Under the pieces are notes generated by a model. That model searched no databases and had not been told where the DNA came from. It was given only the letters and a program-made list of their open reading frames with translations. Positions 5,664 through 29,035 of a DNA stretch of 32,000 nucleotides are shown here, piece by piece (the stretch's first letter is position 1; each line of letters starts with the position of its first letter). Origin of the DNA: Rhodothermia bacterium (lineage in GTDB: Bacteria > Bacteroidota > Rhodothermia > Rhodothermales > UBA2364); assembly GCA_017303715.1 (NCBI GenBank), contig JAFLBZ010000017.1, positions 33,357-65,356 of the forward strand, read 5' to 3'. The position numbers were made by a program, and so were the translations under genes.

Positions 5664-6179
5664 ATGCAAACACCCATTTCTATCAATCGAACAAAAGATC
5701 CCAAGATCCTTGATCGGTGTGCGCAGTGGATGGCAGAGTCGGAGCCTTGGATAACATTACAGCGAAGTGAAACGGACTGTAAAGCGTCTATGAGAGGCGA
5801 TTACAAGGAAGTTTATATTGCCTCCATCCAAAGTGCGTTGATGGGGTTTGTGGTGATCCAAATGGCGGGTACATTTAAAGGCTACATCCAGTCCGTTTTT
5901 GTGGTTCCAGAGGCAAGGCGCCTCGGAATCGGTGGGGTACTCTTGAACTATGCCGAAAACCGCATTTTCGAGGCGTCGCCAAATGTCTTTTTATGCGTCT
6001 CGTCGTTCAATGAAGAGGCACAGAAACTTTATAAGTCGCGGGGGTACACACAAGTGGGGCTTTTACAGGACTTCTTGATAGAAGGTGCAGACGAAATCCT
6101 TATGCGAAAAACCATCGCCCCTTGGCATCGTTATACAGTTAATAAAAACAATTACTTGGAATCGGAAACATCTCTTTGA
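5664..6179 (+). CDS. GNAT family N-acetyltransferase
   Basis: 171 aa. Acetyl-CoA binding motif A is VFVVPEARRLGIGGVLLNYAE, followed by KLYKSRGY. It starts 17 nt after the mannosidase stop and ends 8 nt before the next start. Confidence 0.8.
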   Translation: MQTPISINRTKDPKILDRCAQWMAESEPWITLQRSETDCKASMRGDYKEVYIASIQSALMGFVVIQMAGTFKGYIQSVFVVPEARRLGIGGVLLNYAENRIFEASPNVFLCVSSFNEEAQKLYKSRGYTQVGLLQDFLIEGADEILMRKTIAPWHRYTVNKNNYLESETSL

Positions 6180-6187
6180 CTTAGCTT

Positions 6188-8023
6188 ATGAGTAAAGATA
6201 AACGCACCCTAAACCGGATTCTTCGCTGGTTGCAATACCATGAATGGTGGCTTCTGGGTGGAATGGTGGTGCTTGCCTTTGTCCTTGGTATTCTGGGCTA
6301 TTGGCAATACTACTACATAAACCCGCAAGTTGATGGCTGGACGTGGTGGGATATTTTCTATAAGGTGGGACGGTTTTTTGTGATCGAAGGAGACGAACCG
6401 GCAGGGCCAAATGTACCTTGGGCATTGCAGATTTCAAGGTTTTTAGCACCCATCCCGCCTGTATTTGCAGCAGCAAAGGCCATTTTTTCCGTTTTCAAAG
6501 ATGAGATTCGCAGTCTTAGGGTACATTTTTATCAAGACCATGTGGTTTTTATGGGGTTAGGTTCTCGTGGCGCACCGTTGGCCAAAGAGTTCTTGGAGGC
6601 TGGGGAAAAAGTGGTTTTTGTTAAACCCGCTTTAACCGAAGAAGAAGACGGATGGTTGTACAAACTGGGGGGTATTGGGGTAGAAGGGGATCCCAAAGAC
6701 CGCTATGTCTTAAAAAGAGTGGGAGCGGAAAGGGCTAAACATGTTATTTTATTGGACGATAACGATCAAGTTAATCTGGAAAATGCCGTCCTCTTACGGG
6801 AATACATCAATGATCCAGTGCATAAAGAAAAGGAACCTGTACGGGTATTTATCCACCTGTATAACGATCGCTTAGGCCACATTTTCCGTCGTCATCCCAT
6901 ATTTACAGATACCCAAGACCGCTTTGAAGGCACATTGTTTAACATCTATGAAGCCAGTGCGCGAACGCTGTTGCAGGTTTACCCACCCGAAATGGTGGTT
7001 TATGAAACGGAAAATGCAGCTACGATTTTGGAAAACCGCCCACCTGTACACATTCTCCTCATTGGTTTGGGGCAAATGGGTAAAAATCTTTTACATCAAT
7101 TAATCCTGACCGGACATTATCCGCACCAAGAAAAGCTCTTTGTTACGATTGTAGATCATAAAGCGACCGAAAAAGTGCGGGTTTTTGCAGCTAATTTTCC
7201 AGAACTGATGTGCCTGTTGTCCTTAAAACCGTTGGATGTGGAAATTACGGCACTGCACGACGAGGCTCTTGAACAGTTGAAAGGAAACCCCGCTTATACC
7301 GCGCTGTACCTGTGTTTAGGACAAGATACCCTTGGCGCAGAAGTAGCTTTGTTTTTACGGCAACGCCTCGAAGGTTTATCTCCGGAAACACCTGTGGTTA
7401 CGGTCTTTCCACAGAAAATCTCGATCTCAGATTTGTTGTCCGAAAGCCGCTTGTTTCAGAAAAAAAATCGCATGTACGTCTTCCCTGCAGTCGAAAAGGG
7501 CTGCACCGTAGAAGTCGTTGTCCAGCAAAAATTGGATGTCTTAGCGAAAGCCATCCACGAAGCCTATTTGGAGGAAGCTAAGCGGGATGGATACTATAAC
7601 AAGGACTCGCCCTCGCATCAGCCATGGAGGGCGTTACACGAGGACTTTCGGGATGCGAACCGCCATCAGGCTGATCATATTCGGGTGAAATTAGCCGCTA
7701 TGGGCTGTATGATGCAGCAACAAAACGGGCCATTACCAAAAGTAGATTGGGCTACATTACTCGAACGCCACCCGAACAAATTGCTCGCCTTGGCGCAAAC
7801 CGAACACCGCCGTTGGATGGCCTCTCGCTGGCTTTCGGGGTGGCGATATGCCGAAAAAACCAATCGCGATGCCTTACTTCATGAGAATTTAGTCTCTTGG
7901 GATAACTTGTCGGAACATGTGAAATCACTCGATGCCGATACCGTGCGGAATATTCCTAAGCTCTTAGAAAAAGTGGGCTTGGAAATTTGTATTAAACCAC
8001 CAACAAGCAAAGATGCTGTCTAA
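6188..8023 (+). CDS. Membrane protein: channel-like 2-TM N-terminus + two Rossmann/RCK(TrkA-N)-type domains + C-terminal tandem RyR repeat
   Basis: 611 aa. TM1 is ~aa 20-42 (WWLLGGMVVLAFVLGILGYWQYY). A pore-loop-like segment lies at aa 51-71 (WTWWDIFYKVGRFFVIEGDEP). TM2 is ~aa 77-103. GxGxxG motifs are at aa 122-127 (GLGSRG, in HVVFMGLGSRGAPLAKEFLEAGEKVVFV) and aa 293-298 (GLGQMG, in VHILLIGLGQMGKNLL). RyR-type repeats cover aa ~449-600 (LAKAIHEAYLEE...NRHQADHIRVKLAAMG and EHRRWMASRWLSGWRYAEKTNRDALLHENLVSWDNLSEHVKSLDADTVRNIPKLLEKVGLEI). Confidence 0.8.
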   Translation: MSKDKRTLNRILRWLQYHEWWLLGGMVVLAFVLGILGYWQYYYINPQVDGWTWWDIFYKVGRFFVIEGDEPAGPNVPWALQISRFLAPIPPVFAAAKAIFSVFKDEIRSLRVHFYQDHVVFMGLGSRGAPLAKEFLEAGEKVVFVKPALTEEEDGWLYKLGGIGVEGDPKDRYVLKRVGAERAKHVILLDDNDQVNLENAVLLREYINDPVHKEKEPVRVFIHLYNDRLGHIFRRHPIFTDTQDRFEGTLFNIYEASARTLLQVYPPEMVVYETENAATILENRPPVHILLIGLGQMGKNLLHQLILTGHYPHQEKLFVTIVDHKATEKVRVFAANFPELMCLLSLKPLDVEITALHDEALEQLKGNPAYTALYLCLGQDTLGAEVALFLRQRLEGLSPETPVVTVFPQKISISDLLSESRLFQKKNRMYVFPAVEKGCTVEVVVQQKLDVLAKAIHEAYLEEAKRDGYYNKDSPSHQPWRALHEDFRDANRHQADHIRVKLAAMGCMMQQQNGPLPKVDWATLLERHPNKLLALAQTEHRRWMASRWLSGWRYAEKTNRDALLHENLVSWDNLSEHVKSLDADTVRNIPKLLEKVGLEICIKPPTSKDAV

Positions 8024-11000
8024 AACAAATCATCATTACCGTTATTGGGCGTTTGTGAGTTATAGCCATCGCGACAACAAGTGGGCCGAGTGGTTACACC
8101 ATGCTTTGGAGCATTTTACCATCCCAGCCGCCTTACGGGACAACTTTGTAGCCAAAGATGGTACAGTACCCAAACGCTTGTTCCCCATCTTTCGAGACAA
8201 AGACGAATTGCCTACATCCGCAGATTTAGGAGAACGGCTAAATGCAGCCCTCGAAAATGCGGCCTATCTGGTGGTGATCTGCTCGCCCAACTCAGCGCGC
8301 TCACAATGGGTTGATGCAGAAATACGTCATTTTAAGAAAATAGGACGGGCAGACTACATTTTACCCATTATTGTGGATGGAGAACCTTATGCTTCCGATG
8401 TCCATAGTGGCTTTGATCCGGCGCAAGAGTGCTTCCCACCCGCTTTACGGTTTCAGGTAGATGCCGACGGCAACCTTACCGATATTCCCGCCGAACCTAT
8501 CGCTGCCGATGTACGGCCGGGTAAAGATGCTAAGCCAGATGCGATACTTCGCTTGGCCGCAGGAATACTCGGGACGGGGTACGATACCCTAAAACAGCGG
8601 GATGCTAAACGGCGACAACGGCGCTTAGTCAGCGCTCTTGCACTAACCTTGGCTGTTTTGGCTGTGATGATCGCGCAGTTGTTTCAGGTTAATGCCGAGA
8701 AACGCCATACCGATGTTGCACGTCAAGAGGCCGTATTCCAAAAAAACGTTGCCTTGGCTGCACAAAAAGAAGCCATCAACGAGAAAAATGAGGCCATTCG
8801 GCAAAAATCCCGTGCGGACTCGCTGCTTTTCGTCGCTACCGATGCCCTTGCCAAAATCGAAGAACAAAACGAGGAATTGGGGCAAAAAAACAACGAACTC
8901 TCCGACCTTGTGACTGCATTAGAAAACGAAAAGGAGCAAACACTGGTTGCCAAAAAGAACGCTGAGGCGCAACGCGATCTTGCACATCAAGCCTCAAACA
9001 GAGCGGAGAACGAGCGCCTGCGGGCAGAGCAAGAAAAACAAACTGCCATTTCCGCACAAGCACAACTCCTATTCCGACGAGGATTAACCGCTATCAAAGA
9101 AAATGCAGAACCCGAAGCCATGACCGCTCTGGCCAAGGCCATACAACTGAAGCCGGATTTATATGGAGCGCAATTCTCTTTGGTTCAACTATTGGAAAGG
9201 CAAAATTCGCCCTTTCCCATACGTTCCTTTCGGGATTCTTTAAGTATTAGCGGGCTGCTAATCCCGACGCCCGATCGTAGTGGTTTCGTTACAGGAAATA
9301 TAAGTGGTTTTAGAAAGTGGGATTTTGATCCTAATCCCCAGAATGGGCGCTATTTTCCAACAAATGGGCTAATCGTGGCGGCTTGTCGTCCAGAAGGCTA
9401 TGATCAAATGCTGACCTTACTGGTTGATGTCGCTCCAAACGGGATGCGCCGTCTCAAATACCAAGCGTGGGACATGGCTACCATGAAACCCGTTAAATCG
9501 TCAACGGTACTCTCAACTACTGTCTTAAGACTCTTCCAGACAGAGTCGTGTAGTGATTTGGTCTTGCAAACTCAACCAGACACCTTTTTTATGTTGGGTA
9601 AAGACCTACAGACTTGGCGCCAAGCCACCATTAACGGAGTCCTCTTTTCTACATATACCATGAAAGCGGAAAAAGCGGCTTTCCTTCAGCGGGATAGTAC
9701 ATTGGTGTATTGGGAGGCTGCTACGGGGAAATCTGTCGGGGAGTCGTTTCGCATGAAGGGGCAAGTGCGTGGTATTCGGGTTAGTCAAGATGGAAAATGG
9801 CTGGCTTCTTTACATAACAACGAATCCCAGATTTATCTACGTCCCTTTGGAGCGGCGAGTATAACACAACGGATTCCGATGGGTTCTGTACCGCTGGGGA
9901 TTGGATTTTCGGAAGATGGGGAAATGATGTATGCCTATGGTTCGGATAGCAGGCTTTTGATATGGGACGTGAAGAAAGAAAATGTTGTGTGCATGACCGA
10001 TAAAATACCCCCGATTATAAACATACGGTTCTATCCTACCGAGAAAATGTTCTCAATGGTCGTAAGTAAAACTGGTCACCAGACCTATAGTACCGAGACC
10101 TGTCGTCCAAAGGGGAGGTCTGTCCATAGCGAAGGCTTGATGCTGTCCAGCCTAATGTCACCCCGTATGGACAAGGTTGCTACGTTCAGTAACGATGGGA
10201 AGATGCAAGTGTGGCAAAATAGCAATACCCTAGACCATTTGACAAGCATCCCGATCTTGGAGAAAAACGTGCTCAATGCGTCTTTATCCCCAGATGGAAC
10301 CATTTTGTTCACCCAAAATGAGGCACAAAGGTTACAGGCTTGGGATATGGTAAGCAAAGCTCCTATTCCTCTAGATTTTCTTCCGAAACAAAATGTACAA
10401 CAGGAACGCCTTATGCGGGATGGGTATATTCTTTCCACGCTGATGGATAGTACGGCAACCTTGTGGCATGTTGACAACGGAAAACCCTTGAAAATAAACA
10501 TCCCGAAGCATGTCCCCGGAACCGTCCTGATCAATAAGGGATATAAATTATTGTCTTATTTAGGCTTGGATGCACTTAGGGTTTTCCACTTAGATCGGGC
10601 TGAAGATCAACCCCTCATCGTTGTACCGCGTCAAAATCTGTTGGATTACGACTCGTCTGTGGATAATAAATGGTTTGTTGCGAGTTCGATAGATTCTACC
10701 CTAAGTATATGGAACACCTATCGCCCTGCGGATGCACCAAAAACCATGAAGCTAAAGTCCCCCACTGCTCGGGTTTATACAGACCCCAACTCAAAATTTG
10801 CCCTTCTTGGGGATACCAATGGAAACAATTGGGTCGCCGATCTCGAAAAAGTCACTCTTTTGCCCATAAATCTTAAAAATCGTGCCATGACCCTCCAGAT
10901 GACCTTCTCGCCTGATGGCGAAAAGGTTGCCATATATTCGGGTGATGCGACCATTCGGATTTTTAGTTTGAGCACAGGCCAACCACAGACCGATTATATT

Positions 11001-11417
11001 CAGCTCGATTCTGGTCTAAACGGCTTTATCTTTTCAGCAGATGGAAAGGCGGTTTTGATTCGAGGTGGTGATAATGTGATCCGATATTTAGATGCCGAGA
11101 GTGGTTTATGGCTGGGTAAGCCATTGGAATTGCAAAATTTACAGGCGATATCTTTTCATGAGAAACTTAACAAGGTGGTCATTTCCATAAAAGGTGAAGG
11201 TGTTTTTATGATGCCGATCTCGGATATTCCAGCGAAGATTCCAATAGAAGTGCTACGCCTTTCCGAGCTTGTGGCTGGTTTAGAAATAGATGCGGTTGGG
11301 CAAACAAGACCCATTACAAACCGGAGCGAAGCTTTAGAGGTGCTACGGAACGAATTTCTTATGCGCCCGAACGATGATCCGGTGAAAATGAAATACCATT
11401 GGTTTTGGCAAGAATAA
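8013..11417 (+). CDS. TIR domain protein: N-terminal TIR, single TM helix, ~125-aa coiled coil, degenerate WD40-like beta-propeller
   Basis: 1134 aa. The ATG at 8013 overlaps the upstream gene by 11 nt (its stop is at 8021-8023). The TIR domain spans aa ~11-125 (YWAFVSYSHRDNKWAEWLHHALE...LVVICSPNSARSQWVDAEIRHFKK...ILPIIVDGEP), with Glu103 at nt 8319-8321. A KRRQRR stop-transfer patch is followed by the TM helix LVSALALTLAVLAVMIAQLF (aa ~205-224). A Lys/Glu/Gln/Asn-rich heptad region covers aa ~225-350. Repeated propeller-blade motifs follow (VSQDGKWLASL, FSEDGEMMYAYGSDSRLLIWDV, FSNDGKMQVWQ, LSPDGTILFT, FSPDGEKVAIYSGDATIRIFSL, FSADGKAVLIRGGDNVIRYLD). Confidence 0.85.
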   Translation: MLSKTNHHYRYWAFVSYSHRDNKWAEWLHHALEHFTIPAALRDNFVAKDGTVPKRLFPIFRDKDELPTSADLGERLNAALENAAYLVVICSPNSARSQWVDAEIRHFKKIGRADYILPIIVDGEPYASDVHSGFDPAQECFPPALRFQVDADGNLTDIPAEPIAADVRPGKDAKPDAILRLAAGILGTGYDTLKQRDAKRRQRRLVSALALTLAVLAVMIAQLFQVNAEKRHTDVARQEAVFQKNVALAAQKEAINEKNEAIRQKSRADSLLFVATDALAKIEEQNEELGQKNNELSDLVTALENEKEQTLVAKKNAEAQRDLAHQASNRAENERLRAEQEKQTAISAQAQLLFRRGLTAIKENAEPEAMTALAKAIQLKPDLYGAQFSLVQLLERQNSPFPIRSFRDSLSISGLLIPTPDRSGFVTGNISGFRKWDFDPNPQNGRYFPTNGLIVAACRPEGYDQMLTLLVDVAPNGMRRLKYQAWDMATMKPVKSSTVLSTTVLRLFQTESCSDLVLQTQPDTFFMLGKDLQTWRQATINGVLFSTYTMKAEKAAFLQRDSTLVYWEAATGKSVGESFRMKGQVRGIRVSQDGKWLASLHNNESQIYLRPFGAASITQRIPMGSVPLGIGFSEDGEMMYAYGSDSRLLIWDVKKENVVCMTDKIPPIINIRFYPTEKMFSMVVSKTGHQTYSTETCRPKGRSVHSEGLMLSSLMSPRMDKVATFSNDGKMQVWQNSNTLDHLTSIPILEKNVLNASLSPDGTILFTQNEAQRLQAWDMVSKAPIPLDFLPKQNVQQERLMRDGYILSTLMDSTATLWHVDNGKPLKINIPKHVPGTVLINKGYKLLSYLGLDALRVFHLDRAEDQPLIVVPRQNLLDYDSSVDNKWFVASSIDSTLSIWNTYRPADAPKTMKLKSPTARVYTDPNSKFALLGDTNGNNWVADLEKVTLLPINLKNRAMTLQMTFSPDGEKVAIYSGDATIRIFSLSTGQPQTDYIQLDSGLNGFIFSADGKAVLIRGGDNVIRYLDAESGLWLGKPLELQNLQAISFHEKLNKVVISIKGEGVFMMPISDIPAKIPIEVLRLSELVAGLEIDAVGQTRPITNRSEALEVLRNEFLMRPNDDPVKMKYHWFWQE

Positions 11418-11527
11418 AACCATACTGGGGAACCCATAAACCGGGTGGGCGTGTACGCCTGCCCTAATTTTGGCCCTTATCATGACGAATGGCGTAGGTC
11501 AAGGGCTTCGTAATAAAAAATGATTTG

Positions 11528-27309: not shown

Positions 27310-28011
27310 ATGATAACAATTGACAATTATTTAGACAGCCACTATATCCACCGAAGCAATTGGTTGAGAGCCGCCGTTTTAGGAGCAAATGACGGTATTA
27401 TCTCAATTTCAAGCCTTGCAATTGGTGTAGCAACAGCAAGCGCTACAAGAGACCCTATTCTATTAGCGACTATTGCAGGGCTTGTGGCAGGTGCATTATC
27501 CATGGCCGCTGGTGAATATGTGTCGGTTAGTTCTCAAACAGACATTGAAAAGGCAGATATTGAAAGAGAAAGACAAGAACTTCAAGAAATGCCCGAAATA
27601 GAAATAAAAATACTTGCAGAGATTTATGAAAAACGTGGACTTAAAAAGGAAACAGCTTTACAAGTTGCAAAAGAATTAACAGAATTTGACGCCTTGGGGA
27701 CACATGTTCGAGATGAATTAGGAATAAATGAAATTAGTCAGGCCAACCCTATTCAGGCAGCTTTTGCCTCTGGTGCAGCATTCACTGTTGGAGGACTATT
27801 GCCGCTTTTGGTGACACTTTTCGCTACAATTTCTAGTATGGCGTATTTTTTATATGGCTTTACAATTGTATTCCTCGTTATCCTTGGAGCCGTTTCAGCA
27901 AGAACAGGTGGCTCAAGTGTAGTTAGGGCCGTAACAAGAATCGTAGTTTGGGGAACAATTGCTATGGGCACTTCTGCCTTGGCTGGATATGTTTTTGGTG
28001 TCAATCTGTAA
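27310..28011 (+). CDS. VIT1/CCC1 family iron/manganese transporter
   Basis: 233 aa. HRSNWLRAAVLGANDGIISISSLAIGVA...MAAGEYVSVSSQTDIE, a central acidic helix region, then C-terminal TM helices. This is the typical VIT-family layout. Confidence 0.85.
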   Translation: MITIDNYLDSHYIHRSNWLRAAVLGANDGIISISSLAIGVATASATRDPILLATIAGLVAGALSMAAGEYVSVSSQTDIEKADIERERQELQEMPEIEIKILAEIYEKRGLKKETALQVAKELTEFDALGTHVRDELGINEISQANPIQAAFASGAAFTVGGLLPLLVTLFATISSMAYFLYGFTIVFLVILGAVSARTGGSSVVRAVTRIVVWGTIAMGTSALAGYVFGVNL

Positions 28012-28573
28012 TCTGAAGCCTTAAAAAATATGAATATGGCACATTTTTATTTTGTGGAAAATCGTTGAGGTGACAGGAAATTACATTGAAAGGCACGAAG
28101 AGTCAGCAGGACTACTTTCCATCCTTTTTTTATTCTCTATGGACTTACATTTTTTAGGATTGCTGGCTTGTATCAAACAAAGAAATACCCAAATATTGTA
28201 AATATTTTAGTTTTTAATTTTTGTATTTGTAGTCACCTTATTTGGGAAAGTACAAGAACAAAAAGTGGCTAAATTTGACAGATTGAATCAGAGAAAACAA
28301 AAAAGTAACACCAAAAAATTAAATCAATATCAATATTGACCAAGATGGGGACTGAAAAAACTGTTTGGAAAGGAATTGAATAAAGACCAATAAATTGATT
28401 TTTTGAACGGGGGATTTTTTGCCTAAAAAAACCGATCTTGTGTACTGCAAAAATGTATATAGGAAAGATGGAATTAGACAGATAAGAGATTTATAAAGTG
28501 TTTTTTTAAAACTTAGTTAACTGGAAAGCTTTTGGCCATTACACATGAATAAAATGGAAAATAAATTTAATTT

Positions 28574-28906
28574 CTATCCAAAAATTATTTTTCTATGTTT
28601 TTGACCCCACTCCACGATAGAAGCAATTAAAGGGTCTAATGAATATCCATGTTCTGTTAGACTATATGTTACTTTAGAAGGGTTATCAGGATCTAATTTA
28701 CGAATTACCAATTTGTTTAATTCTAAATATTTTAACTCCTTGATTAAAGTGCGCGGGGTTATTACTCCCAAATCCCGTTTGAGTTCATTAAAACGTTTTT
28801 CTTTATCACATAAACTCGCTAAAATTGCCCCTCTCCAGCGTCCGCCTATAATGTTTATCACATCTTGGACATCTCGAAGTTGCACCTGTTTTTGTTTGTT
28901 TTTCAT
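28574..28906 (-). CDS. HxlR family transcriptional regulator
   Basis: 110 aa. IIGGRWRGAILASLCDKEKRFNELKRDLGVITPRTLIKELKYLELNKLVIRK...VTYSLTEHGYSLDPLIASIVEWG is the winged-helix HxlR signature. It is divergent from an NAD(P)H-binding oxidoreductase, which is a classic pairing. Confidence 0.85.
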   Translation of the reverse strand: MKNKQKQVQLRDVQDVINIIGGRWRGAILASLCDKEKRFNELKRDLGVITPRTLIKELKYLELNKLVIRKLDPDNPSKVTYSLTEHGYSLDPLIASIVEWGQKHRKIIFG

Positions 28907-29035
28907 TGTAAAATCAGCATTTTATATAAAGTAGTATCCTAAAAGATAGTTGTAATTTTACAAACCAGTTGTGATTTTAATGTAAAGGCAGTATATTTTG
29001 AATACCAAATTTTCTGTTAAAAAGTTTTTGAATTT

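Follow-up and report, generated by a model that had tools for sequence, protein, structure and literature searches.

Thoeris systems combine a TIR protein with an effector, and according to the searchable text and tables of a December 2025 survey, types V–XI have been named, 29 types are proposed, and types II, V, VI, VII and X set the precedent of a TIR protein acting with a membrane or channel effector (10.64898/2025.12.03.692087). In type X, as described in those parts of the survey, the effector is an 'ion channel' named ThsK and the system has been validated as anti-phage. Phage proteins built on a RyR or Repeat12 (R12) domain have been reported to hydrolyse 2'cADPR and 3'cADPR, or to bind these isomers and cyclic ADP-ribose (cADPR) with nanomolar affinity (PMC13232231; 10.64898/2026.06.04.730250). 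Here, we describe a pair of genes in a window of 32,000 nucleotides (nt) from a Rhodothermia bacterium (contig JAFLBZ010000017.1 of assembly GCA_017303715.1; the window is this whole stretch, and positions refer to it), whose products are a channel-like protein of 611 amino acids (aa), encoded by the open reading frame (ORF) 6188–8023 and hereafter called the 611-aa protein, and a TIR protein of 1134 aa, encoded by ORF 8013–11417 and hereafter called the 1134-aa protein. A preliminary description of this DNA had proposed the two as a TIR signalling or defence module not yet described. We lean, if only slightly, towards the view that the two genes encode a Thoeris-like module of membrane proteins whose signal derives from NAD, and in which the channel would be gated by the product of the TIR domain.

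The likeness to Thoeris lies in a catalytic-Glu TIR domain encoded beside a protein that joins a domain whose phage homologues bind cADPR isomers to a membrane part, and in a predicted logic by which signal production would be followed by activation of a membrane effector. In contrast, neither the 11 named types nor the 29 proposed ones, as the searchable text and tables of the survey present them, include an effector composed of a two-transmembrane (2-TM) pore, tandem RCK domains and a RyR R12 domain, and no RyR or TrkA annotation was found in that material (10.64898/2025.12.03.692087). ThsB is small and soluble, whereas the TIR protein of the window is a predicted single-pass membrane protein of 1134 aa with a large sensor of its own; and the window pair is not situated in a defence island. 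The preliminary description had recognised no named system in the pair. That statement held in so far as PADLOC models gave no system match in the window, as expected for a novel system, and ThsK is unrelated; it did not hold in that a Thoeris type combining a TIR protein with an ion channel, type X, had already been published. The ThsK candidate of Vibrio sp. JCM 19052 (L170:3369-3992; loci outside the window carry L numbers) is a 208-aa protein that matches Ion_trans_2 only weakly and lacks RCK and RyR domains, and BLASTP (E 0.18) revealed no resemblance between it and the 611-aa protein. The TIR proteins of this type X locus, which are soluble, ThsB-type proteins of 155–163 aa, are likewise unlike the 1134-aa membrane protein. 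Identity with type X was ruled out, since ThsK is unrelated to the 611-aa protein. RyR, TrkA and DUF4062 go unmentioned in the conflict-system paper of Kaur et al. (2020), the DUF4062 preprints mention no RyR or TrkA partner, and literature searches for a bacterial RyR domain with TrkA and for TM-TIR periplasmic receptors returned nothing and nothing specific, respectively.

The two ORFs lie on the same strand and overlap by 11 nt, as the preliminary description had it, with the coordinates, the downstream ATG and the upstream TAA all confirmed (Table 1). An identical overlap and the same synteny were found in relatives of 93% identity; in a 55% relative the channel and TIR genes are 1 nt apart, and in a 25% relative the channel gene overlaps a TIR-NB-ARC gene by 4 nt. 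Upstream, 8 nt separate the end of a GNAT acetyltransferase gene (5664–6187) from the ATG of the channel gene, and a GH2 mannosidase gene ends 17 nt ahead of the GNAT gene. Terminator-like hairpins were seen in this region only at 2106–2135 and 11443–11464 (consensus scan), and the latter, to judge from its sequence, is likely the transcript end. Given this distribution of hairpins and the tight spacing, the channel and TIR genes may be the last two on a transcript of four genes. A sigma-70 promoter scan scored no higher than the shuffle expectation and is uninformative for a Bacteroidota-like genome.

The 611-aa protein was modelled with AlphaFold2 (AF2) on seven homologues (predicted local distance difference test, pLDDT, 81.4; predicted template-modelling score, pTM, 0.74), and the model displayed, in order, TM1, a short helix at residues 53–64, a loop, TM2, two Rossmann domains and a helical C-terminal domain. 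A Foldseek search of the PDB returned full-length GsuK as the top match (E 5e-9, 550–617 aligned columns), with entries that include 4gx2, titled 'bound to NAD', and 4gx1, titled 'bound to ADP'; the TrkA ring, CASTOR and Slo1/BK ranked next. The 2-TM, pore-loop-like N-terminus proposed earlier was thus recovered by hydropathy (TM segments 20–38 and 85–103), by the AF2 model and by the GsuK match. Likewise, the two GxGxxG Rossmann/RCK domains that had been called from the letters were found as a Pfam TrkA_N match at residues 119–206 (E 3.8e-9, above the gathering score) and a second GxGxxG Rossmann domain at residues 289–338. As in channels of the GsuK, MthK and TrkA type, each chain would comprise a 2-TM pore that includes a pore helix and, after it, two RCK (KTN) Rossmann domains. 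GsuK itself, regulated by NAD+/ADP according to the PDB titles, shares about 12% sequence identity with the 611-aa protein. Unlike GsuK and MthK, the 611-aa protein has no TVGYG K+ selectivity filter, its pore loop reading FFVIEGDEP (family consensus QLFVLESG); it carries an added C-terminal RyR domain; and in its clade the acidic residue of RCK1 is missing. The Pfam scan gave no Ion_trans_2 match in the protein. Ion conduction, and whatever selectivity goes with it, are predictions from the model.

Conservation was evaluated over 154 representatives of the 611-aa family. Both GxGxxG motifs are more than 90% conserved and D323 is 90% conserved. Position 146, at the end of β2 of RCK1, is Glu or Asp in 97% of the family and Lys in the window clade, which suggests that nucleotide binding at RCK1 has been altered or lost there; the K146 codon is at 6623–6625, and Lys is also present in the closest relatives.

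The C-terminal domain is one of the features that set this protein apart from GsuK and MthK. Pfam placed RyR at residues 534–600 (E 2.3e-10, 41 bits against a cut-off of 27.4), and sequence matches in the PDB comprised 3NRT/6UAG and the RyR1/3 repeats, among them a 'putative ryanodine receptor' of B. thetaiotaomicron. Its sequence can be aligned with the RyR domain of the 611-aa protein position by position, and it serves as a structural relative in both phage studies (PMC13232231; 10.64898/2026.06.04.730250). The tail of the AF2 model also matched RyR3 Repeat12 (9l9b/9ls7; Foldseek E 2e-5, target-based template-modelling score, TMt, 0.53–0.56, ~187 columns). Pfam scores the second repeat only; the tandem repeat named in the preliminary description is supported by the RyR3 Repeat12 match together with the first-repeat motif, in which H457, Y460, W480 and R492 are the family-invariant counterparts of the second-repeat residues. 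The latter, H540, W543 (+3), H565 (+25) and D582 (+42), form a candidate ligand pocket, the spacing of which is identical to that of H75/W78/H100/D117 in RyDEP and H129/W132/H154/D171 in RyR Tad; the comparison with the phage residues was made through this spacing and the B. thetaiotaomicron alignment, not by direct alignment to the phage sequences. E539 and H540 are 99% conserved, W543 is aromatic in 99%, W480 and R492 are conserved in 99% and 94%, respectively, and position 582 is Asp in 68% and Asn in 22% of the family. The R12 domain of human RyRs is the site of the drug dantrolene and a suspected cADPR/ATP site.

Published work on RyR-domain proteins gives these residues their interest. 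RyR Tad binds 1''-3' gcADPR, 1''-2' gcADPR and cADPR through contacts that involve H129/W132, K147/H154 and K170/D171 (10.64898/2026.06.04.730250), several RyDEP homologues are nanomolar sponges (PMC13232231), and animal R12 domains bind ATP/ADP (10.64898/2026.06.04.730250). A host-encoded RyR-domain receptor is described in neither of the two papers (PMC13232231; 10.64898/2026.06.04.730250). The link between the RyR domain and cADPR, offered as speculation in the preliminary description, has thus been published for phage proteins, and the same ligand residues are present in the 611-aa protein. With the phage and animal proteins the latter would share the fold and the H-x-x-W ... H ... D residues, as read from its sequence; with animal R12 it also shares the tandem repeat as a pseudo-dimer and the attachment of the domain to an ion channel. 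However, in phages the domain forms small, soluble proteins that counter defence as sponges or glycosidases, whereas it is here host-encoded, fused to a channel and placed beside a presumed signal-making enzyme, and animal RyRs are unrelated 6-TM giant channels.

The 1134-aa protein opens with a TIR_2-type domain, as had been noted before: Pfam matched TIR_2 at residues 14–125 (E 7e-15) and ThsB_TIR (E 9e-9), and the N-terminal 234 residues, modelled with 32 homologues, gave a confident AF2 fold (pLDDT 92, pTM 0.85). In Foldseek, the TIR model matched the TIR domains of SPARTA, TLRs, RUN1, RPP1, L6, SARM1, AbTir and ThsB (EcThsB2). The Glu that had been assigned to the W-x-x-x-E position, E103 (codon GAA, 8319–8321), aligned with the catalytic Glu of that motif in solved TIR domains and is invariant in 33 of 33 relatives. 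A post-TIR extension (EPIAAD.RPGKD ... LKQR) is conserved in the same 33 relatives, with P162, A164, A165, D166, R168, L193 and R196 invariant. A basic flank, KRRQRR, precedes the TM helix at residues 205–223, and a helix is found at the same position in the TIR partners from seven other loci (L003, L102, L100, L111, L021, L029 and L013). Because the N-terminal flank is strongly basic, the positive-inside rule would place the TIR domain in the cytoplasm and the stalk and WD40 propellers outside it. The TM segment that figured in the title of the preliminary description was hence upheld, and its consequence, a predicted extracytoplasmic WD40 part, had not been drawn there; the propeller region itself was recovered as Pfam WD40 families across residues ~560–1070.

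This TIR-TM-sensor layout recurs in at least 12 partner TIR proteins, several of them with PKD, PD40 or RHS domains. As predicted, it would also resemble the layout of Toll-like receptors and of bacterial PknD-type receptor kinases, with a repeat or propeller sensor outside, one TM helix and a cytoplasmic signalling domain. Unlike Toll-like receptors, the sensor is WD40 and not leucine-rich repeat (LRR), the TIR domain is predicted to be enzymatic and not a scaffold, and the topology is deduced from hydropathy and charge. The Pfam scan found no NB-ARC, NACHT, AAA_16 or nSTAND match in the 1134-aa protein; the P-loop module of STAND/NLR-type conflict systems is therefore absent here, whereas it is present in partners of distant homologues.

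To place the pair in its family, a profile search was run over 1.84 billion representatives, in which the 611-aa protein had 21,527 matches at E<=1e-3 and 4,162 at E<=1e-30. The best 150 matches are mostly full-length (~600 aa), and some family members carry extra RyR repeats or fusions with HD, nSTAND5 or DUF3616. The idea of a rare family, which came from seven matches in a word-based search, was ruled out by this exhaustive search with its more than 21,000 matches. Phage records held no match to the channel family and plasmids six weak ones only; the locus on a Sinorhizobium plasmid has TPR and cyclase neighbours and no annotated TIR gene.

Linkage to TIR genes was examined in 160 genome and metagenome loci, the full-length set being clustered at 80% identity, with a neighbourhood of 6 kb and a small home-made hidden Markov model (HMM) as TIR detector, so that the counts are lower bounds. 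DUF4062 was counted along with TIR, being a TIR-like NADase (10.64898/2026.05.01.722283). A TIR or DUF4062 gene was found within 6 kb in 15 of 46 distinct full-length loci, in nine of the 15 within 300 nt, as against 3 of 52 shorter relatives, none of these three in the Chromatiaceae-type group (Fisher p = 0.0012). The TIR-linked distant homologues (22–31% identity) belong to Acidobacteriota, Planctomycetota, Gamma- and Betaproteobacteria and others. One such locus has a DUF4062-STAND-TPR gene upstream of the channel and a TIR-NB-ARC-TPR gene overlapping it downstream; other partners are DUF4062-STAND, TIR-TPR, TIR-WD40, TIR-PKD-PD40, TIR-RHS, TIR-RDD, SIR2-TIR and TIR-HsdR proteins, and directly upstream of one distant channel is a TIR-TM protein 35% identical to the TIR module of the window. 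In almost every partner TIR protein, the TIR domain is immediately followed by one TM helix. Further neighbours are nSTAND1 proteins, patatin and prok_STING, and some of the distant loci are defence-rich.

Closer to the window, the 55% relative keeps the pair in a different context (LplA, DUF423, M20), the TIR proteins being 33% identical over their full length, which argues that the pair moves as a cassette. In a 74% identical, syntenic relative (GCA_016788705.1) the channel gene is intact and the TIR gene is an internally deleted pseudogene, the remnants of which (L001:9844-10710, L002:3841-4803) match residues 9–120 and 986–1134 in frame and with stops. From these remnants, the sister lineage looks to have lost its TIR partner recently. 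The TIR-extension-TM module itself represents a large subfamily (606 matches, 46–57% identity among those aligned), and no RCK-RyR gene lay within 6 kb of the three members sampled on long contigs. With all three lacking a channel, the association runs from channel to TIR and not the reverse, and more than half of the RCK-RyR loci lack a recognisable partner. The linkage beyond close relatives on which the preliminary description had staked its proposal was thus found from the channel side, in several phyla, and was not found from the TIR side.

We propose that the 1134-aa protein would act as a single-pass receptor, with its stalk and WD40 propellers facing the periplasm and its TIR domain facing the cytoplasm. 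Once the propellers sense a trigger, the TIR domains would cluster and, by means of E103, cleave NAD+ to yield ADP-ribose or a cyclic ADPR isomer. This product would be bound in the H540/W543/H565/D582 pocket of the 611-aa protein. The latter would couple a 2-TM pore of the GsuK/MthK kind to a gating ring of tandem RCK domains, whose NAD/ADP-type Rossmann sites may also report falling NAD+. Binding of the nucleotide would gate the pore, and the resulting ion flux and membrane depolarisation could lead to growth arrest or abortive infection, or to a graded ionic response.

Several of the above observations weigh against such a module. With no K+ filter and a pore loop that is moderately conserved across the family, the term 'channel' is owed to the fold; in RCK1, K146 stands in place of the acidic residue that normally binds ribose; no TIR gene is seen within 6 kb of about two thirds of the RCK-RyR loci, and none of the three TIR-subfamily members sampled has a channel gene; the window is a housekeeping neighbourhood, and PADLOC finds no system in it. 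Moreover, the intact channel gene beside a TIR pseudogene implies that the channel has no strict need for this TIR protein. Much of this would fit a pair that merely shares an operon, with a housekeeping cation channel or transport regulator responding to NAD(H) or ATP/ADP on the one hand and a self-contained, NAD-depleting TIR sensor-effector on the other, a reading we consider unlikely. The 8 nt from the GNAT stop to the channel ATG make a longer transcript possible, the TIR subfamily occurs mostly alone as do many RCK-RyR genes, and the ATP/ADP binding of animal R12 domains points the same way. However, across phyla RCK-RyR genes repeatedly neighbour TIR or TIR-like genes that bear unrelated sensor scaffolds and often overlap the channel gene or lie within 300 nt of it, and this recurrence with different scaffolds makes chance or synteny alone hard to accept; the pair has stayed together after relocation in the 55% relative, and other neighbours are of the immune type (STAND, prok_STING, patatin, SIR2-TIR).

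A different objection concerns the direction in which the RyR domain acts. The catalytic dyad of the RyDEP glycosidase consists of the residues that match H540 and D582 (PMC13232231), and both stand at the exact spacing in the 611-aa protein, so the domain might destroy the signal instead of sensing it. The protein would then hydrolyse or sequester the TIR product as a regulator or immunity factor and not as a killing effector, keeping a dangerous NADase signal in check or resetting the system. The Asp/Asn division at position 582 resembles the split between enzyme-type and sponge-type homologues, and the separate SLATT-like 4-TM protein encoded downstream in Proteobacteria (see below) might take part as a third component or, in those bacteria, form the effector pore itself, a further point against a gated channel as effector. 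Nonetheless, a hydrolase or sponge needs neither a 2-TM pore nor a tandem-RCK ring, and the GsuK-like architecture is kept in more than 4,000 representatives; the window offers no other candidate effector; and most RyDEP homologues tested did not hydrolyse despite bearing the same residues (PMC13232231). We regard this alternative as improbable. Slightly less so, and still quite unlikely in our judgement, is that the wiring is as proposed and its purpose non-immune, with a periplasmic WD40 receptor that reports a cue from the cell wall or the exterior and a channel that the TIR product opens reversibly for stress adaptation, kin or contact sensing, or dormancy. The predicted extracytoplasmic sensor domains of the partner TIR proteins (WD40, PKD-PD40, RHS/YD, TPR) are of kinds usual in proteins of the surface or periplasm. 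The gene lies on the chromosome, keeps its synteny and is passed on vertically within its clade; it is absent from phage records and rare on plasmids. Against this, many homologous loci are rich in STAND, SIR2-TIR, HsdR-TIR, SNF2, patatin and STING genes, gene decay as in the sister lineage is typical of defence genes, and all characterised bacterial TIR signalling systems covered by the searchable text and tables of the survey are anti-phage (10.64898/2025.12.03.692087).

Table 1. Features of the gene pair, with window positions, strand and the evidence for each.
Feature	Position	Strand	Evidence
Channel-like 2TM-RCK1-RCK2-RyR gene, 611 aa, ATG start	6188..8023	+	ORF; Pfam TrkA_N and RyR; AF2; Foldseek
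TM helix 1, residues 20-38	6245..6301	+	Hydropathy 1.99; AF2 helix 19-44
Pore-helix-like helix and loop, residues 53-77	6344..6418	+	AF2 helix 53-64 followed by loop; alignment with GsuK membrane part; family consensus
TM helix 2 / inner helix, residues 78-103	6419..6496	+	Hydropathy 85-103; AF2 helix 78-102
RCK1 / KTN Rossmann domain, G123-x-G125-x-x-G128	6536..6982	+	Pfam TrkA_N 119-206; GxGxxG >90% conserved
RCK2 Rossmann domain, G293-x-G295-x-x-G298, D323	7046..7507	+	N-termini of Pfam F420_oxidored/NAD_binding_2 at 289-338; conservation; tandem-RCK match to GsuK/TrkA
Tandem RyR (Repeat12-like) domain	7529..7993	+	Pfam; PDB sequence matches; Foldseek; conservation; residue spacing
11-nt gene overlap, ATG 8013, upstream TAA 8021-8023	8013..8023	+	Same overlap in L007/L008/L090
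TIR-TM-coiled-coil-WD40 gene, 1134 aa, ATG start	8013..11417	+	ORF; Pfam
TIR domain, residues 10-125, predicted catalytic Glu E103 at 8319-8321	8040..8387	+	Pfam; AF2 pLDDT 92; Foldseek
Conserved post-TIR extension and juxtamembrane segment (EPIAADVRPGKD ... LKQRDAKRRQRR)	8388..8612	+	33 relatives; common to the L102 TIR protein
Single TM helix, residues 205-223	8625..8681	+	Hydropathy 2.41
Charged helical, coiled-coil-like stalk, residues ~225-350	8685..9062	+	Read from sequence
Two WD40-type beta-propeller regions, residues ~560-1070, predicted sensor	9690..11222	+	Pfam beta-propeller/WD40 families
Terminator-like GC hairpin with T-rich tail, 26 nt past the TIR stop	11443..11464	+	Consensus scan only

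The surroundings of the pair were examined by a Pfam scan of the 18 other ORFs of the window, all of which proved to be ordinary genes. They include a protein with a type IX secretion system (T9SS) tail, the GH2 mannosidase, GNAT, an MqnA-like protein, SmpB, tyrosyl-tRNA synthetase (TyrRS), a TPR protein and PurK, together with a DsbH-like thioredoxin, Hsp20, an ECF sigma factor, an SSF symporter, 7TM-HD and VIT1. A location in a defence island, which the preliminary description had held in view, was contradicted by neighbours such as the mannosidase, GNAT, the MqnA-like protein, SmpB and TyrRS; its remark that no SIR2/SLOG, Macro, STING, SAVED, Argonaute or cyclase gene is nearby was correct for all 18 ORFs scanned. 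The closest named relative is a metagenome-assembled genome (MAG) of 'Bacteroidetes Order II incertae sedis'. Between VIT1 and the small ORFs that follow it, at 28001–29000, the G+C content drops to 0.30 from ~0.46 elsewhere.

Among the homologues, a number of variant loci were observed. In Gamma- and Betaproteobacteria, a conserved unannotated protein with an N-domain of ~350 aa and four TM helices is encoded directly downstream of RCK-RyR (L013, L015, L016, L019, L027, L028, L100-L103 and L137; for example L102:8688-10658), with weak matches to SLATT_3/DUF4231. Short forms of 250–280 aa consist of the N-domain alone (L029:11641-12486, L112, L115-L117, L167). No such protein is present in the window, and the suggestion that the proteobacterial downstream partner of ~670 aa is a hidden TIR protein was ruled out, as it has no similarity to TIR. 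In Cyclobacterium (L036:9320-12897, L066, L119), an RCK-RyR variant of 829 aa is extended at its N-terminus by 200 aa that match the SLOG-type YAcAr family weakly (E 0.011); an M48 peptidase precedes it, and a protein of 354 aa that carries a prokaryotic STING domain comes after it; no cyclase was identified at these loci. The genes at L110:4538-14051 encode, in order, a DUF4062-NACHT protein (786 aa), RCK-RyR (605 aa), a WD40 protein with 14 repeats (804 aa) and a RyR-containing protein, an order that resembles a STAND receptor divided in two by the channel gene.

Tandem arrangements were also seen: three TIR-RDD genes lie between two RCK-RyR paralogues at L096:2122-10110, four TIR-TM genes in a row (one of them TIR-RHS) follow a single channel gene at L013:9100-15213, and L033 has two channel paralogues in tandem. 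At L168:3318-6737 (minus strand), a TIR domain is fused N-terminally to a type I restriction R subunit (HSDR_N, SWI2_SNF2, ResIII), and an RCK-RyR gene lies next to it in divergent orientation. The homologues of the L032-L089 group, from Chromatiaceae and other Gammaproteobacteria, match the second Rossmann domain and RyR only (query residues ~250–600), and no TIR-like gene was found within 6 kb of them. One fusion protein, P0007 (878 aa), carries PF04607, TPR, RyR and PF18171; taking PF04607 to be RelA/SpoT and PF18171 to be prokaryotic SLOG of the TRPM type, it would be another RyR domain among nucleotide-signalling modules.

The Thoeris field is expanding fast, and the phage RyR-domain proteins shown in mid-2026 to bind or cleave cADPR signals give the pair a particular setting, as it would be a host-side counterpart to these newly found anti-Thoeris proteins and a parallel to the animal cADPR-RyR axis. 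Host proteins that employ this domain as a receptor are not known to have been described. The 611-aa protein represents a possibly large, phylum-spanning family of RCK-RyR channels, with thousands of representatives, that may be recurrently wired to TIR or TIR-like NADases; should the link to TIR fail, the family would still be a widespread, uncharacterised type of channel with two kinds of nucleotide-binding module. If the module is confirmed, it would add a new effector class to TIR immunity, represent the first bacterial membrane-anchored, outward-facing TIR sensors tied to a second-messenger effector, and offer a tractable bacterial model of nucleotide gating through RyR Repeat12. A bolder reading, which we hold to be possible and rather doubtful, is that of a bacterial pathway in the style of Toll-like receptors, in which a WD40 sensor outside, one TM helix and an enzymatic TIR domain would generate a cADPR product that directly gates the RyR-Repeat12 channel. 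If this were true, there would be a prokaryotic 'TIR -> cADPR -> RyR-domain channel' axis, the R12 domain of animal RyRs would descend from a cADPR-sensing gating module, and the long-disputed direct action of cADPR on RyR would gain a simple model.

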